Below are positions 1,462 to 6,679 of a DNA stretch of 12,059 bases, one piece after another (position 1 is the first letter of the stretch; the number at the start of each line of letters is the position of its first letter). The position numbers were made by a program, and so were the translations under genes. This DNA is from a virus (taxonomy: Duplodnaviria; Heunggongvirae; Uroviricota; Caudoviricetes), in the IMG/VR virus record IMGVR_UViG_2713896791_000029, one strand, 5' to 3'. Under the pieces are notes generated by a model, which saw nothing but the letters and a program-made list of their open reading frames with translations, was not told the origin of the DNA and did not search any database.

Positions 1462-1951
1462 ATATGTCCTTTTATCACCACAGCAAGGCAACCCATTGAT
1501 TTAATTAAACAACACACACTGCAAAAAGTGCTAAAAACAGCAAATTGACTACACCATTAACTACACCGTTCGGTGCACTGTATGAAACAACGTGGAACAA
1601 ATAGACACAAGAAATATACAGGCGGGTAATCTTTCCAGGGGGAAGCGCACCAATTCATGAGGGGCGTTAATGTCGATATGGGGATCCCCATAACGGGGCT
1701 ACAGGATTTTTTTTCCGGTTAACTGTTAATCAGGCTGGTGGGTTTTACCTGTTCGGTAGGTGTTATGATTATCGTAATACCTTTCCCCCAGTGGGGTAAA
1801 AGCTCCAACCGTAACGATGTTCGTTGTGGTTGCCTTGATGGTCTGCGTGGTCATTATGACCATTCAGAATATGAAGGGTGACGCTTCCGACTTCCTCAAA
1901 TTGAGGTTTCCGAAAATATCAGCGGGTTAGCGATTAATCTGACCATTAATT

Positions 1952-1974: not shown

Positions 1975-2062
1975 GTGAATATATTCCGGCCTTCTGGTTA
2001 ACAGTCCTCAGATGTGAGGGATGTAGCCAGCGCAATTTTGCGTTATCGGGAATATCAGCAAG

Positions 2063-2344
2063 TTACCGCCGCAGCCGTTCCGGCTTCTTCCAGTGGTACG
2101 TTATTTTTTCTTTCTCCCGATACAGTTCAACGCGGCGATTGTAGGCCAGCATTTCAAGAACGCGGTTCCGTATGTTGCGCATATCAACGCCATTAAGTTC
2201 TATACCATCACGGCGCATCACTTCCGCTACAACACGCACATAATTTTCAGCGGTCACGCTGTCCGGCTGTGTGGCCTGTTCGTCATGCTGCTGGCTGATT
2301 CCGGCGACGCGGCGGATTAATCCCAGTAGTTCGGCTTCTGTCAT
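2063..2344 (-). CDS. Hypothetical protein (93 aa), last gene before the island's left junction
   Basis: ORF with GGGGG Shine-Dalgarno about 5 nt upstream of the ATG. No motif I recognise. Confidence 0.45.
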   Translation of the reverse strand: MTEAELLGLIRRVAGISQQHDEQATQPDSVTAENYVRVVAEVMRRDGIELNGVDMRNIRNRVLEMLAYNRRVELYREKEKITYHWKKPERLRR

Positions 2345-2401
2345 TGTGCCCCCATCGCTCTGATAGTCTGGTGTCGTCGGGTCCTTCCTGGAATTATGGC
2401 C

Positions 2402-2580
2402 CGTTACGGGGCGGCGACCTCGCGGTTTTTATCTGTTTATGAGAATTTTCCGGCAAAAGTCAGATCCGCTCTTCTTCTCTGTAACAGACTGTTTAACAAT
2501 GAAAATATTAAAAAAAGAAAGGATCTGACACGAGGCATTTTAGCCAGAAAATGCCATTATCAGATCCTTTCTCATTTTTG
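2402..2580 (+). other. Lambda-type cos site: cosN (GTTACG/GGGCGGCGACCT/CGCGG, overhang at 2408-2419) plus cosB-like R3/I1/R2/R1 region
   Basis: Close to collinear with the remembered left end of lambda (GGGCGGCGACCTCGCGG...TTTATGA.AATTTTCCGG...TCTTCTTC...AAAGAAAGGA...CCTTTCTC..TTTTTGT). R-element cores read CAGATCC at 2460-2466 and 2560-2566, and inverted as GGATCTG at 2520-2526, where lambda has CGTTTCC. An AT-rich I1-like segment lies between R3 and R2. Confidence 0.8.
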
Positions 2581-2599
2581 TTCAATAATTGCGCGTCTG

Positions 2600-3142
2600 T
2601 TACTCGCCTTTCTTCTGTAGCAACTTTTCCGGTACGTTTCCGGTTGTTTCTTTCAAGTAATCAGCCAGTATCTGTGGGAGGTTGTCGGCAACTCTGGCAC
2701 TGGCATTACAGACTTTAACCACTTCCCTTTTAAGCCTGTCCAGCATGGCGGGGGTAATCTGTGGGAAGCTCCTTTGCATAGTAAGCGGGAGGATGTCCAT
2801 GATTGATGAAATCTGACTCGCCAGCTTTGAAAGCGCGTACAGGCAAAACTCAGTATCAATCACGTCACCGCGATCGCGATCGTTTTTAAGTTCCTGCGCC
2901 TCTGCCTGTGCTGTCAGTAATCTGATCCTGACTCGTAAAAGTTCATCATCGTCAATCTCGCCTTTGTCGTTTATAAGCTGGCTAATTGCATTGTTAACCC
3001 TATTTTCTATCACGCTGGCAACATCATAAAACGCCTCACGGCCTTTACGCTCAACGGGAGTTACTCCCCACTTGTCGAACGCTGTCGCACTTACACGGCA
3101 GCTTTTCGCCATGTTTTTTTTGTTCATCAGATGAGATTTCAT
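2600..3142 (-). CDS. Small terminase subunit, lambda Nu1-like (180 aa)
   Basis: The C-terminal two-thirds align with lambda Nu1 (LTAQAEAQELKNDRD...DTEFCLYALSKLASQISSIMDILPLTMQRSFP versus Nu1 LTRAQADAQELKNARD...ETAFCTFVLSRIAGEIASILDGLPLSVQRRFP). The N-terminal wHTH region has the same spacing with conserved NKK...A...S...W and EAFYDVASVI (Nu1: EVLYDSAAVI) but different intervening residues. Start codon choice is uncertain; the ATG at 3142 has only a weak Shine-Dalgarno. Confidence 0.85.
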   Translation of the reverse strand: MKSHLMNKKNMAKSCRVSATAFDKWGVTPVERKGREAFYDVASVIENRVNNAISQLINDKGEIDDDELLRVRIRLLTAQAEAQELKNDRDRGDVIDTEFCLYALSKLASQISSIMDILPLTMQRSFPQITPAMLDRLKREVVKVCNASARVADNLPQILADYLKETTGNVPEKLLQKKGE

Positions 3143-3143
3143 T

Positions 3144-3181
3144 AATACACCAACTTAATTACTGCTTCAGGTTGGTGTATT
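3144..3181. repeat. Inverted repeat: 11-bp arms AATACACCAAC / GTTGGTGTATT with a 16-nt spacer, ending 1 nt from the terS ATG
   Basis: Read directly from the sequence; perfect arm complementarity. Confidence 0.5.
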
Positions 3182-3317
3182 GCTTGCATCTTTCCCTTTT
3201 CATTCATAAAGATAGATCAAACAACAAAACCACCACCACCCCCCTGAAAAGGCTCATAAATAGCGAAAATCCGCGAGGTCTCCGCCCCGTAACAGGTCCA
3301 TATGCCGGAAAGGACCC

Positions 3318-3342
3318 GCAAAAAAGCCGGATTTCTCCGGCC
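3318..3342 (-). terminator. Intrinsic terminator (copy a): GCCGGA-loop-TCCGGC followed by U6 on the - strand
   Basis: A6 + GCCGGA tttc TCCGGC on the + strand, so hairpin then U-run on the - strand. Sits 5 nt after the stop of the 137-aa gene. Confidence 0.5.
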
Positions 3343-3347
3343 TTGTC

Positions 3348-3761
3348 TCAGATGGTTTTCAGTATGCGATCGATGTCGCCGTCATCGCCCGGGTTTCTGC
3401 CATCGTATGCCATGCCAGCTGATACGGCTTGTGGGCTGTGCATGTCCATAAAGTTTTCAAAGGCTGCGGTAAGCTCTGGTGCAACCTTCGGGCGTTCCTG
3501 CTCTATGGTCATGTTCAGGATGTTTTTAGCCGTATCAACATCAATACAAGGCACGTTTGCCATTGCACGTAACAGCGGCTGATAGTCGTCAGATTCATGA
3601 AGCGCCATAATCGCATCAGCGCGCGGCTTGTCCTTCTCTTCCAGGCTGTTAAGTTGATATACGGCCTCGTAGGTTGATAAACCTCTGTCAGCCATTGCCC
3701 GCGCTTCGGCTTTAAATTTACTCGCCAGCGGTAGCGTCATGATACTTTCATTCGTTGCCAT
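3348..3761 (-). CDS. Hypothetical acidic protein (137 aa) between the decoration gene and terS
   Basis: AGGGGG Shine-Dalgarno 4 nt upstream of the ATG, 12 nt after the stop of the gpD-like gene. Acidic and predicted helical. No motif I recognise; a scaffold or packaging accessory role is only a guess. Confidence 0.6.
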   Translation of the reverse strand: MATNESIMTLPLASKFKAEARAMADRGLSTYEAVYQLNSLEEKDKPRADAIMALHESDDYQPLLRAMANVPCIDVDTAKNILNMTIEQERPKVAPELTAAFENFMDMHSPQAVSAGMAYDGRNPGDDGDIDRILKTI

Positions 3762-3773
3762 CGTTCCCCCTGC

Positions 3774-4109
3774 TTATCGCGCCAGCGGCTGAACGGATAC
3801 GCCAGAACCCGCAAAGGCGGCGCATTTTTTCGCGTCGGTGTCGGCGCTCTCAGGCCAGTTAACGGCGGCAATATTGAATATCCCCGTCTTGTAGCACTGT
3901 GCTGATTTCTGCGTCGACGTGTCCACGGGGTACGAGGTCAGATAAACAGCCTTGCCAGATTCCTGACCATCCCACGGCTTAAACTCGCCATTTTCCGCCA
4001 GCATCAGCGGGGTAAATTCCTGAATAACGCCAGCATCAGCAGCAAAATGTACCAGCGTCGTGGATACCTGCTGACTACCTGCAAATAACTCAATGTATGG
4101 AGTGTCCAT
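3774..4109 (-). CDS. Head decoration protein, lambda gpD-like (111 aa)
   Basis: Aligns with remembered lambda gpD: FTPLMLAENGEFKPWDG...DTSTQKSAQCYKTGIF...WPESADTDAKKCAAFAGSGVSV versus TPLMLDTSSRKLVAWDG...DQTSTTLTFYKSGTF...[29 protein letters not shown] Shine-Dalgarno immediately after the stop of the capsid gene. Confidence 0.8.
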   Translation of the reverse strand: MDTPYIELFAGSQQVSTTLVHFAADAGVIQEFTPLMLAENGEFKPWDGQESGKAVYLTSYPVDTSTQKSAQCYKTGIFNIAAVNWPESADTDAKKCAAFAGSGVSVQPLAR

Positions 4110-4121
4110 AGAATCCCCCCG

Positions 4122-5177
4122 TTAACCAATTTTGACGGTAACAAATTTGCGAATATCTGCCGGTACCGGCTGCGGTGCGCTGTGCGTCTGCACGTACTCA
4201 ATCGCCGGATCGCCGTCCTCAATCCAGTTTTTCGGGTAAAACATGTTTTGCGTTGCGCCCGTTCTGACCGCTTCCTGATCCATAATCGCACCATAGGCCA
4301 CCAGCCCTTTATTGTTGGTGTTACCCAGGACCAGCAAATCAGGCTCAAGGAAATATTTTTCGGTGCCGTCGCTGTCAGTGTATTTGCCGGAATAGACGAC
4401 AAGGGCAATATCGCCCAGATAGCCTTTAAAGCTCACCACTTCACCCAGGTTTTTACAGGCCAGTTCTGCGGCGGATTCTGAACCACGGGAAAGGTCGTAC
4501 AGTTCGCGGAATTTTTTAAAGCTGCGTAACGTGCGCCATACTTCAGCGCCCATAATCATGACGTTTGCGGGGCAATTGCCCTGATCAGCATAAAGCTCGA
4601 TGTCATAGATTGGATCGTGTGTTTCTTTATCCAGCTCAGACCATTTTTTACCGTCAGCCTGTTCTATGATATTGCTTTCCGGGATCTTCCAGTCGATTTC
4701 ATAGCGTTCTATGCCTTCGCCCTCAATGAGGTTTTTTCCGGTCGTTACCGCATTCACCGCCAGCCATTCCACGCGTGCCTTAATGGCGTTTATCTGGCGG
4801 CGCATGTTGCCAGTAATCAGGCGCATACGGCGATAGGTAGGATCGTTAAGCTGTGCCGGATCTTCTCCAGCCATGCGCATGATGGTTTTTGTTGGATCGA
4901 TTTCGTGTTTGGGTTTCATGTAGCCTGGTTTAATCGTGCTGGTTTCGTACCCTTTATCGCGCTGGACCTGACTACCCACCATAGGCGAACAGAACGCTGA
5001 CATCGTAACCTCTTCAATGTCCAGGGTGTCCAGCATGATGTTCTGGGTGTTGAAGGTCGCCACGTTCGGGAAAAACAGCGTGGTAAACAGCGGACTGAAT
5101 TTAAATTCTGCAATATCCCCGCGATTCAGGTACGCGAAAAGCTGGTTAGTGTTAAGTGCCGTTGCTTTGCCTGCCAT
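4122..5177 (-). CDS. Major capsid protein, lambda gpE-like (351 aa)
   Basis: Multiple blocks shared with remembered lambda gpE: EFKFSPLF..LFF, PGYMKPKHEI, DPTYRRMRLI, DKETHDPIYDIELYA, FKGYLGDIALVVYSGKY, VLGNTNNKGL.AYGAI.D, YPKNWIEDGDPA.E....SAP. GGAGGTG Shine-Dalgarno; the stop of the upstream gene overlaps the start (TAATG). Confidence 0.9.
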   Translation of the reverse strand: MAGKATALNTNQLFAYLNRGDIAEFKFSPLFTTLFFPNVATFNTQNIMLDTLDIEEVTMSAFCSPMVGSQVQRDKGYETSTIKPGYMKPKHEIDPTKTIMRMAGEDPAQLNDPTYRRMRLITGNMRRQINAIKARVEWLAVNAVTTGKNLIEGEGIERYEIDWKIPESNIIEQADGKKWSELDKETHDPIYDIELYADQGNCPANVMIMGAEVWRTLRSFKKFRELYDLSRGSESAAELACKNLGEVVSFKGYLGDIALVVYSGKYTDSDGTEKYFLEPDLLVLGNTNNKGLVAYGAIMDQEAVRTGATQNMFYPKNWIEDGDPAIEYVQTHSAPQPVPADIRKFVTVKIG

Positions 5178-5383
5178 TATTCACCTCCATGCGTCTGATT
5201 CATGCCCAGCGCCGCGCGTAAATAGGCGCGGACCTGCCAGCCTGTTGACGGCTCAACCATCGCCAGCGGATCAAGTCCTGCCGCAATGCCTGCTTTTACG
5301 TTCTGCCGGTGGCGTTCCTTGAGCGCCTTCACGATGTCGGGGCTTATGTACACCGAAACACCGCCTTTTTTCTCTTCAGCCAT
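5177..5383 (-). CDS. Hypothetical small protein (68 aa), first gene of the head operon; possible ribbon-helix-helix-like fold
   Basis: Translationally coupled to the capsid gene. The N-terminus GGVSVYISPDIVKALKERH resembles a beta-strand plus helix RHH motif, but this is weak. Confidence 0.5.
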   Translation of the reverse strand: MAEEKKGGVSVYISPDIVKALKERHRQNVKAGIAAGLDPLAMVEPSTGWQVRAYLRAALGMNQTHGGE

Positions 5384-5417
5384 AGTAAGAAATTCCTCTT
5401 CGACTTAAAAAATCATA

Positions 5418-5468
5418 ACTGGATGTTTATCCAGTCCTGATTATAATCAGAATTGCATTTTATGCAAT
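5418..5468 (-). promoter_or_regulatory. Three adjacent palindromes overlapping a sigma70-like promoter for the head operon
   Basis: ACTGGAT-gttt-ATCCAGT (5418-5435), perfect 14-bp palindrome CTGATTATAATCAG (5437-5450, contains TATAAT), and ATTGCAT-ttt-ATGCAAT (5452-5468, contains a TTGCAT -35-like hexamer on the - strand). About 35-85 bp upstream of the 68-aa gene. Confidence 0.5.
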
Positions 5469-5548
5469 GATATTGAGTTATGTTGCAAATTATGAAATGA
5501 TTATCCCGATCACGAACGCCAGTGCATCCAAAAACCTCATATGCAAAA

Positions 5549-5586
5549 GCCCGATAAGAACCCTCTGACCTTATCGGGCTTTTTTT
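5549..5586. terminator. Hairpin GCCCGATAAG-loop-CTTATCGGGC flanked by an A-run and T7; bidirectional terminator-like
   Basis: Perfect 10-bp stem with 11-nt loop, T7 on the + side and A4 on the other. Confidence 0.5.
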
Positions 5587-5590
5587 GGGC

Positions 5591-5615
5591 GCAAAAAAGC
5601 CGGATTGCTCCGGCT
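5591..5615 (-). terminator. Intrinsic terminator (copy b): GCCGGA-ttgc-TCCGGC followed by U6 on the - strand
   Basis: About 20 nt downstream of the stop of the 74-aa gene. Near-identical to copies a and c. Confidence 0.55.
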
Positions 5616-5634
5616 ATGTGTGCTGTGTGCTGGC

Positions 5635-5859
5635 TCAGTCTCTGATCTCTTTCAGAAATTCTATCAATGCATCTATCTGTTCAGGATTTACCGCCAGCAT
5701 TTCACCGGATAGAGCACATCTCACAAAACCATGCTGATCCTTTTCAATCAGTGCGCCCGTCTCCAGGAATGCGCGGTAATCATTGATGCTCATCGTCTCC
5801 ATGTTGTCAGCATGGTATTTATCACGCTGTTTTAATATCTCATCAAATTTCATCGGCAT
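5635..5859 (-). CDS. Hypothetical protein (74 aa)
   Basis: AGAGGAAA Shine-Dalgarno upstream of the ATG; followed by tandem terminators. No motif I recognise. Confidence 0.5.
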   Translation of the reverse strand: MPMKFDEILKQRDKYHADNMETMSINDYRAFLETGALIEKDQHGFVRCALSGEMLAVNPEQIDALIEFLKEIRD

Positions 5860-5953
5860 TGTTTTTTTCCTCTGTTGTGTCTGTTTGTTTCAGATAGTAA
5901 CTATGCCTGACCGTGACGAAAACCCGGTAATGCGCCATACCGTTTCAACTGGT

Positions 5954-5979
5954 GCAAAAAAAGCCGGATTTCTCCGGCT
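5954..5979 (-). terminator. Intrinsic terminator (copy c): GCCGGA-tttc-TCCGGC followed by U7 on the - strand
   Basis: Begins 7 nt after the stop of the PerC-like gene. Confidence 0.55.
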
Positions 5980-5985
5980 GTTTGA

Positions 5986-6258
5986 TTAGCTGTCCTGGTA
6001 ATTGCGCCATATTTCATCACCAGCACCATCTATACCCATTTCGGCATAAGTGCGATCGACTGCCTTTTTCAGGTCTCCGAAATTATCCGGCGGCTCCGGT
6101 GCCCTCTGTGCCTTCCTTGAACATTCCAGCCGTCGCATCGTGATGTGATGCCGTTCCTTGTCTGTCTCCACCAGCTGCATGACTTCACCCCATCGCGCCG
6201 CCGCCCTCCGGTAAAAGCCTTTCGCCTCCAGTTCCTCCGCTATGCGGTCATGTACCAT
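5986..6258 (-). CDS. PerC-family-like transcriptional regulator (90 aa)
   Basis: Start placed at the ATG at 6258, which has a GAGGGGGTG Shine-Dalgarno directly after the SSB stop; the longer 130-aa ORF would overlap the SSB gene. The motif AEELEAKGFYRRAAARWGEV resembles the conserved N-terminal signature I recall for PerC/Pch regulators. Family assignment is from memory, not a search. Confidence 0.5.
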   Translation of the reverse strand: MVHDRIAEELEAKGFYRRAAARWGEVMQLVETDKERHHITMRRLECSRKAQRAPEPPDNFGDLKKAVDRTYAEMGIDGAGDEIWRNYQDS

Positions 6259-6268
6259 CGTCACCCCC

Positions 6269-6679
6269 TCAGAACGAAATATCATCACCGTAAGGGTCAT
6301 CGCCTCCCGCTGGTGGCTGATTACCCTGTGTGCCTGTGGTTTTGCGTCTGTTCCCGCCTGGACGTGCCGCGCGGGCACTGATTACGCTGTCTGCGATAAC
6401 CTGCCAGCCCTGCCGCGTTTCTCCGTTCTGTCCGGTCCACTGGCTTACCTGCATCGTGCCGGATACGCTGGCAACATCGCCTTTTTGATGTTTAGCCAGG
6501 AAGTCGGCCTGTTTGCCAAATGCGATGACCGATAACCATAACGTCGCCTGTCCGTCCTGTGCCTGGCTGCATGGCAAAGATACCGCCATACGCGCCAGCG
6601 TCATCGGTGTGCCCTTGCTGGTCTGTTTTACCTGCGGGTCGTCCACCAGCCGCCCGTAAGCGGCTATCTGTGCCGTCAT
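6269..6679 (-). CDS. Single-stranded DNA-binding protein (SSB-like, 136 aa)
   Basis: OB-fold core aligns with E. coli SSB (LWLSVIAFGKQADFLAKHQKGDVASVSGTMQVSQWTGQNGETRQGWQVIA versus [50 protein letters not shown]). Gly/Pro-rich linker and acidic C-terminal tail ...GDDISF (SSB: DDDIPF). ATGA overlap with the upstream gene. Confidence 0.8.
   Translation of the reverse strand: MTAQIAAYGRLVDDPQVKQTSKGTPMTLARMAVSLPCSQAQDGQATLWLSVIAFGKQADFLAKHQKGDVASVSGTMQVSQWTGQNGETRQGWQVIADSVISARAARPGGNRRKTTGTQGNQPPAGGDDPYGDDISF

Follow-up and report, generated by a model that had tools for sequence, protein, structure and literature searches.

What does a PerC-family regulator do on a phage satellite: does it activate virulence genes of the bacterial host, does it switch on the late genes of the satellite itself, or is it cargo with another task? 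The question is raised by a gene at positions 5986-6258 (minus strand) of a 12,059-nt stretch of DNA, IMG/VR record IMGVR_UViG_2713896791_000029, which is referred to below in its full length as the window. An earlier note, made from the sequence alone, had proposed that the gene belongs to the PerC/Pch family and that it either activates virulence loci, as relatives do in enteropathogenic and enterohemorrhagic Escherichia coli (EPEC and EHEC), or serves as the late-gene activator of its island. We consider it probable, at roughly 0.6, that the gene is a pchE allele carried as optional regulatory cargo by a satellite of the phage-inducible chromosomal island (PICI) type between phoQ and roxA, and that its product acts through protein contacts and is not an activator of the head promoter. 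The earlier interpretation is partly supported: the family and the mobile satellite have held, whereas both functional readings proved weak. In substance the finding is already known, as the gene is annotated in RefSeq, the orthologue pchE has been studied since 2004-2005, and PICI-borne PerC alleles were described in 2018 and 2025 (PMC6092414, Fillol-Salom et al.; PMC11773190).

A pchE Allele of the PerC Family

ORF calling places the open reading frame (ORF) on the minus strand, with an ATG at 6258, a TAA at 5986-5988 and a product of 90 amino acids (aa). A hidden Markov model search against the PerC family bore out the proposed assignment. The product matches Pfam PF06069 (PerC) significantly and along its whole length (E 3.9e-43; 146.1 bits, the cutoff being 22.6), with residues 1-89 aligning to positions 1-89 of the 90-position model, and it also matches phrog_994 (E 3.2e-47). 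The same coordinates in RefSeq NC_013353.1 correspond to WP_000233304.1, a “PerC family transcriptional regulator.” A 57-sequence family alignment has 14 invariant or near-invariant residues, and all of them are kept (D4, A7, L10, E11, G14, R17, R18, A19, A20, R22, W23, C46, M74, and G75), and the protein has the size of about 90 aa that is typical of the family. The dN/dS of 0.23 between this gene and pchE of E. coli O157:H7 Sakai, which is one pairwise comparison with small counts, places perC under purifying selection. The presence of a perC gene is confirmed and a chance ORF is ruled out.

Within the family, the protein shares 90% aa identity with Sakai PchE (ECs_1588) over all 90 residues (nine substitutions), but only 40% with EPEC PerC (pMAR2) and 42% with PchA. 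Sakai pchE sits in the prophage-like Sp7, which is O-island 51 (OI-51) or CP-933C, between roxA and phoQ, a site also given in PMC3378721; the literature places pchE on EcCIEDL933. According to the annotated maps its neighbors are those of the window gene, namely a 252-bp ORF, ssb, pchE, and a 225-bp ORF, and blastn aligned window positions 5594-6929 to the Sakai cassette at 94% nucleotide identity. The two elements thus have in common the order orf83, ssb, perC, orf74, a repeated terminator and the roxA-phoQ site. They differ in that the window island has a RepA-type helicase and a module of lambda E/D-like capsid proteins plus the small terminase subunit (TerS), whereas Sakai has a primase and a full packaging module of the HK97-type capsid-forming PICI (cf-PICI). 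Since the same cassette occupies the same site in an otherwise mosaic satellite, the window gene is regarded as the positional orthologue of pchE.

Identity to ECs_1588, ssb upstream, orf74 downstream and a satellite at roxA/phoQ all agree with group 3 Pch, the group of PchE. With the group 1 proteins PchA, B, and C and with EPEC PerC, which activate LEE1/ler within the enterocyte effacement locus (LEE) and are anti-silencers of H-NS, the product shares the Pfam family, the conserved GxYRRAAxRW core and a similar size. The low identity, however, and the length of 90 aa against 104 aa for PchA set it apart from them. The genomic locations differ as well, because the window gene lies on a satellite, whereas group 1 Pch and EPEC PerC belong to lambdoid prophages or the pEAF plasmid; EPEC perC is plasmid-borne in the perABC operon, and pchA belongs to the late region of a prophage resembling lambda.

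A further copy, coding for a 100% identical PerC, was observed at 161329-161598 of the plasmid record CP061267.1. The record (171 kb, from sheep) has been typed as an E. coli plasmid, and the copy means either that a plasmid has received the satellite by integration or that the record has been wrongly assigned.

Predicted Fold and Mode of Action

Structure prediction, based on an alignment made without EPEC PerC (alignment A2), yielded an all-helical PerC whose conserved N-terminal ~50 residues form a helical hairpin resembling tetratricopeptide repeats (TPR). A DNA-binding fold was not detected in the predicted structure. Foldseek found no match for it in the PDB at E<=0.001 (best 1.9), a PDB sequence search returned only chance-level PACSIN F-BAR helices (E 0.01), and in BFVD the only viral structure recovered was that of KpCHEMY26, likewise a PerC-like phage protein (E 0.03).

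The sequence offers a second lead. The ANR model (NCBIfam NF033650, ANR_neg_reg) matches residues 7-52 of the window protein with E 3.3e-4 and 20.4 bits, the cutoff being 32, and it matches 42 of 56 PerC-family members at E<=0.01 (best E 3.2e-7). These similarities indicate distant homology to ANR and not membership. Like PerC, the ANR proteins (Aar, Rnr, Cnr) are small with about three helices, and the sequence similarity extends over residues 7-52; PerC differs from them by an extra C-terminal stretch of ~40 residues (helices 4-5, with the conserved M74 and G75), and its score is under the cutoff. ANR proteins consist of three helices without DNA-binding capability, and Aar/ANR bind AggR and H-NS (PMC5570504). 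An ANR-like nature is also suspected for a related PICI gene of EcCIMP1 (PMC11773190). Taken together, the predicted fold and the weak ANR homology point to protein contacts or anti-silencing rather than to classical DNA binding.

PchE would accordingly influence transcription in the host through contact with other proteins or their displacement, and it would not be a sequence-specific activator of the island head promoter. Candidate targets are the H-NS/StpA/Hha nucleoprotein complexes, as for PchA, or partner regulators, as for ANR; PchA activates LEE1 solely via relief of H-NS/StpA/Hha silencing (PMC4764244). By homology to the 90% identical O157 PchE, little or no activation of LEE1 would be expected, and strong expression should lower csgD, curli and adhesion and raise flagellar expression. 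Over-expressed pchE reduces csgD, curli, biofilm and HEp-2 adhesion and increases flagellar expression (PMC6265319, PMC7369912), and deletion of pchE has no phenotype in csgD, curli, biofilm, adhesion, or flagellar assays (PMC6265319, PMC7369912).

A possible, though unlikely, alternative is that the protein is an ANR-like anti-activator that binds and thereby inactivates a putative partner factor of the AraC/XylS or GrlA/Ler type and so represses virulence or adhesion genes. Its model would be EcCIMP1_025, a PerC-family cargo gene on the E. coli PICI EcCIMP1 for which an ANR-like character was proposed (PMC11773190). EcCIMP1_025 silences LEE1 in a LEE1-lux assay and represses LEE1 in Citrobacter rodentium (PMC11773190, 2025 ISME J), over-expression of PchE represses csgD, eae and adhesion (PMC6265319, PMC7369912), and the TPR-like hairpin and the ANR matches, both across the family and for the window protein, suit such a function. 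However, the ANR score stays under the cutoff, and between EcCIMP1_025 and the EcCIEDL933-type protein the identity is only about 40% (PMC11773190). This alternative moreover overlaps with the explanation favored here, from which it differs only in the target.

The Cassette and Its Carrier Island

The following features of the window bear on how perC is expressed and exchanged.

5384-5593, minus strand: promoter and leader of the head module, AT-rich (37% GC), part of the packaging module and not of the perC cassette (composition, repeats)
5594-5615, minus strand: second copy of the repeated terminator, 3' of orf74 (terminator scan)
5594-6929, minus strand: conserved orf83-ssb-perC-orf74 block, 94% nucleotide identity with Sakai Sp7/OI-51 (blastn)
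5635-5859, minus strand: orf74, phrog_1957, a small separate cassette between perC and the head promoter (ORF list, PHROG, RefSeq)
5958-5979, minus strand: intrinsic terminator directly 3' of perC, AGCCGGAGAAATCCGGCT followed by a T-run (terminator scan)
5986-6258, minus strand: perC-family gene, pchE allele (group 3 Pch), 90 aa (PF06069 full length; 90% to ECs_1588; WP_000233304.1)
6259-6271, minus strand: overlap of the ssb stop codon (TGA 6271-6269) with the ribosome-binding site (RBS) of perC (Shine-Dalgarno GAGGGGG 6270-6264, 5-nt spacer to the ATG) (sequence reading)
6269-6679, minus strand: ssb, gene for a single-stranded DNA-binding protein, immediately upstream of perC (PF00436 E 1.7e-16; TIGR00621; RefSeq)
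6676-6927, minus strand: orf83, phrog_1231, first gene of the conserved cassette, RefSeq coding sequence of 252 bp (conserved with Sakai ECs_1586)

The overlap of the perC RBS with the ssb stop codon suggests co-transcription and probable translational coupling of the two genes, and a promoter scan found no sigma-70-like promoter between them on the minus strand. perC is the last gene of a rep-orf83-ssb-perC transcription unit and has a strong intrinsic terminator behind it. The terminator hairpins span 5979-5962 (3' of perC) and 5615-5598 (3' of orf74); a third hairpin with a T-run at 5583-5545 reads as terminator-like but was not called by the terminator scan. RefSeq also lists a 42-aa hypothetical protein, WP_001301569.1 (5901-6029, minus strand), which overlaps the 3' end of perC and spans the perC terminator hairpin; it is probably a spurious gene call.

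A 21-nt terminator sequence, GCCGGAG(A/C)AATCCGGCTTTTT, occurs three times on the minus strand of the window (5958-5978, 5594-5614, and 3321-3341; 0 expected by chance). Each copy borders a module, being located 3' of perC, 3' of orf74, and 3' of orf137 before terS, and copies stand at equivalent borders in Sakai (9552-9572 and 9906-9926 of locus L002) and in E. coli Nissle 1917 (9691-9711 and 12131-12151 of locus L060). Compared with Sakai, the orf83-ssb-perC-orf74 block, in which orf74 is 98.7% identical to ECs_1589 at the nucleotide level, is bordered by non-homologous replication and packaging modules. With the repeated terminator at their borders, perC and orf74 look like cassettes, and the repeat may be where recombination adds or removes cassettes.

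Bases 1-1461 of the window encode PhoQ, and the remainder has 100% identity to a region found in EHEC genomes, for instance that of E. coli O103:H2 12009 (NC_013353.1, 1326056-1337025). The RefSeq map of this identical region locates the island between phoQ and roxA, with all genes on one strand. It begins with an integrase, a helix-turn-helix (AlpA-type) regulator, Icd-like proteins, a DUF4222 protein and a RepA-family helicase, continues with a 252-bp hypothetical gene, ssb, the PerC family regulator, and hypothetical genes of 225 and 207 bp, and ends with the major capsid protein, a head decoration protein, a 414-bp hypothetical gene, the terminase small subunit and a 282-bp hypothetical gene. 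Domain scans agree with this annotation (Phage_cap_E, SSB, and AAA_25, besides the PHROGs of head decoration and TerS). Judged by its gene content, the carrier element is a PICI-type phage satellite, a class further defined by a size of about 10-15 kb and the lack of tail and lysis genes: it combines int, an alpA-type regulator, and replication and packaging genes in one orientation. It falls short of a full cf-PICI, because portal and large terminase subunit (TerL) are unannotated in the island, whereas Sakai is annotated with both.

According to blastn, the window and Sakai islands share their ends (integrase/alpA and the phoQ-proximal ORF), and their replication and packaging modules are non-homologous. 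The packaging module of the window comprises a lambda gpE-like capsid protein, a gpD-like decoration protein, orf137 and TerS; portal, protease, and TerL are unannotated in the island. orf137 resembles the C-terminal portion of a head maturation protease, its strongest match being a PHROG of unknown function. The same packaging module is found in the Nissle 1917 island at another attachment site, and it differs from the HK97-type cf-PICI module at the phoQ site of Sakai. Two N-runs interrupt the window (7356-7419, 64 nt; 8429-8478, 50 nt), and over the span in question the public record has about 310 bp more. As the N-runs replace a longer real sequence, the RepA helicase and rgdR ORFs read truncated in the window.

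Distribution and Native Role

Among 5426 complete E. coli genomes, 536 contain the full cassette (at least 80% coverage) and 1695 have some match; in the sampled rows, partial matches mainly concerned the orf83-ssb part. Two islands illustrate the variability. That of Nissle 1917, at a tRNA-Pro gene next to yejM, has ssb followed by the repeated terminator and then the head module, and tblastn across the 18.6-kb locus did not find perC or orf74 (E>=0.17). In strain USVAST219, the cf-PICI-type island lacks perC, and ssb is followed by an orf74 homologue. As perC is absent from the former and only orf74 is present in the latter, perC is best described as optional cargo.

The family as a whole appears to be small, since a profile-free search of 1.84 billion cluster representatives recovered no more than 105 clusters at E<=1e-3. 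When one genome per species was scanned, 55 perC loci were detected, all in Enterobacterales. For 44 loci, 5 kb or more of upstream sequence was available, and 17 of these have at least two satellite backbone markers (integrase, AlpA, RgdR, primase, SSB) upstream and on the same strand. These backbone-linked loci are found among the closer relatives of the query, including members of Enterobacter, Kluyvera, Shimwellia, Pantoea, Lonsdalea, and Chimaeribacter; PerC members at a greater distance occur in varied contexts, in lambdoid prophages (pchA), and on plasmids. The genes downstream of perC vary across the loci. This distribution is in keeping with a mobile-element regulator that resides most commonly on satellites.

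It might even be that PerC proteins are native to satellites, as TPR/ANR-like anti-silencers that end the int-alpA-primase-ssb early operon of PICI/P4-like elements, and that LEE activation by PerC and PchA/B/C is a later exaptation. Upon induction, PerC would then remodel H-NS-type complexes on AT-rich promoters of the satellite or on helper or host DNA. The closest relatives of the window gene do lie in the int-alpA-primase-ssb backbone across several genera. Enterobacter, Kluyvera, Pantoea, Lonsdalea, Shimwellia, and others are not known to carry the LEE, which makes LEE control unlikely as the ancestral role. We nevertheless regard this evolutionary scenario as rather improbable.

The Head Promoter

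The earlier note had located perC two genes upstream of a palindrome-rich head promoter and had suggested that it could be the late-gene activator of the island. In fact, a single gene (orf74), two intrinsic terminators and the third hairpin lie between them. The head promoter contains a perfect TATAAT within the palindrome CTGATTATAATCAG and two operator-like 19-nt repeats at a distance of 30 bp (TTGCATTTTATGCAATGAT, position 5453; TTGCAAATTATGAAATGAT, position 5483). In the leader, the hairpin ACTGGATAAACATCCAGT with a T-run (5436-5417) has a terminator-like score and lies just before the RBS of orf68 (RNA fold z = -2.8). This immediate succession of promoter and terminator hints at regulation through antitermination or a helper factor. 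When the head-promoter region was compared by blastn with 50,697 phage records, no DNA match emerged, and the comparison thus gave no tie to a helper-phage late promoter or a Q-antitermination site.

A role of perC, at the end of the early/replication operon, in switching on this promoter (about 5418-5500) is very unlikely. The arrangement itself would suit it, as perC closes the early unit, lies about 500 bp upstream of a promoter that is AT-rich and has operator-like repeats, and is distal to the int-alpA-primase-ssb backbone in 17 of the 44 assessable Enterobacterales loci; the family is, furthermore, annotated as activators. Yet in Nissle 1917 the head module is present together with its promoter and the palindromes, and the island has no perC (window 2051-5585 corresponds to L060 9888-13422 at 92.9%). 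Conversely, the promoter region 5384-5593 is not conserved in Sakai, where a 90% identical PchE is combined with an unrelated head module and upstream region, the shared block ending at 5594. A sequence-specific activator is expected to travel with its promoter, which perC does not. In addition, pchE mRNA drops upon SOS/prophage induction (PMC6265319), PICI induction is credited to AlpA with PerC handled as an accessory gene in the literature, and the predicted PerC structure, as described above, revealed no DNA-binding fold.

P4 Delta and P2 Ogr, as small satellite-encoded regulators near morphogenesis genes, offer a functional analogy only. They have no sequence relationship to PerC, which has a single conserved Cys (C46) in place of their Cys4 zinc finger, and the Ogr_Delta zinc-finger domain was not found in the window protein, whose sole Pfam match at E<=0.01 is PerC.

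Iterons of the form TTGTTCnnnG were observed with a 10-bp spacing between int and alpA (10738-10790, plus strand), with one copy near the phoQ-side end of the island (1586-1600, minus strand); the four matches compare with 0.1 expected. In Sakai, the same 25 nt are also present upstream of the head gene (L002 9946-9970). The iterons are possibly binding sites of the AlpA/Xis type or Int arm type. As the only element common to the Sakai head-upstream region and the window, they were considered as a PerC site and rejected, because the window copies are near int/alpA and attL and not at the head promoter.

Some observations weigh against a PchE that works through protein contacts and leaves the head promoter alone. 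Co-precipitation of Pch with H-NS was not seen, and Pch was located at chromosomal loci by chromatin immunoprecipitation (PMC4764244). A putative PerC homologue elsewhere in the Nissle genome, moreover, could trans-complement the head promoter of the island.

PchE and the LEE

The remaining explanation, a LEE/ler activator like EPEC PerC or PchA, B, and C that adds virulence gene dosage in LEE-positive EHEC, can draw on the common Pfam family PF06069, on the EHEC O103:H2 host genome type and on the lowered type III secretion (T3S) after deletion of the whole homologous OI-51 in O157 (PMC3378721), but it is very unlikely, because the protein is 90% identical to the group 3 PchE and only 40-42% to the LEE activators, because the PerC-like genes of EcCIEDL933 and EcCICFT073 left LEE1-lacZ fusions unaffected according to PMC11773190, and because the T3S effect of OI-51 was mapped to RgdR (ECs1581) and not to PchE (PMC3378721). 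For PchE itself, PMC6265319 and PMC11773190, through which the results of Porter et al. 2005 (PMC543544) are also cited here, report little or no LEE effect. The virulence-activator function suggested in the earlier note is thus unlikely. Its broader statement, that the gene links a mobile satellite to host regulation, stands in general form and has already been published (PMC6092414, PMC3378721, PMC11773190).

The island DUF4222 gene (window ~8392-8514, partly masked by the N-run 8429-8478; 10126-10425 in the locus record L001) is 81% identical to RgdR. This regulator of OI-51 was shown experimentally to activate LEE/T3S (PMC3378721), and the evidence that ties the satellite to virulence regulation is better for the RgdR-like gene than for perC.

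Implications

For the PerC family, these results mean that the PchE subgroup should not be taken as LEE activators. The comparison of islands characterizes perC as an optional cassette that is tied to no particular head promoter, and the evidence from the predicted fold and the ANR similarity supports the published suspicion that PerC proteins of PICIs work through protein contacts. A question of some value is which benefit PerC-type cargo brings to the satellites that so often carry it.
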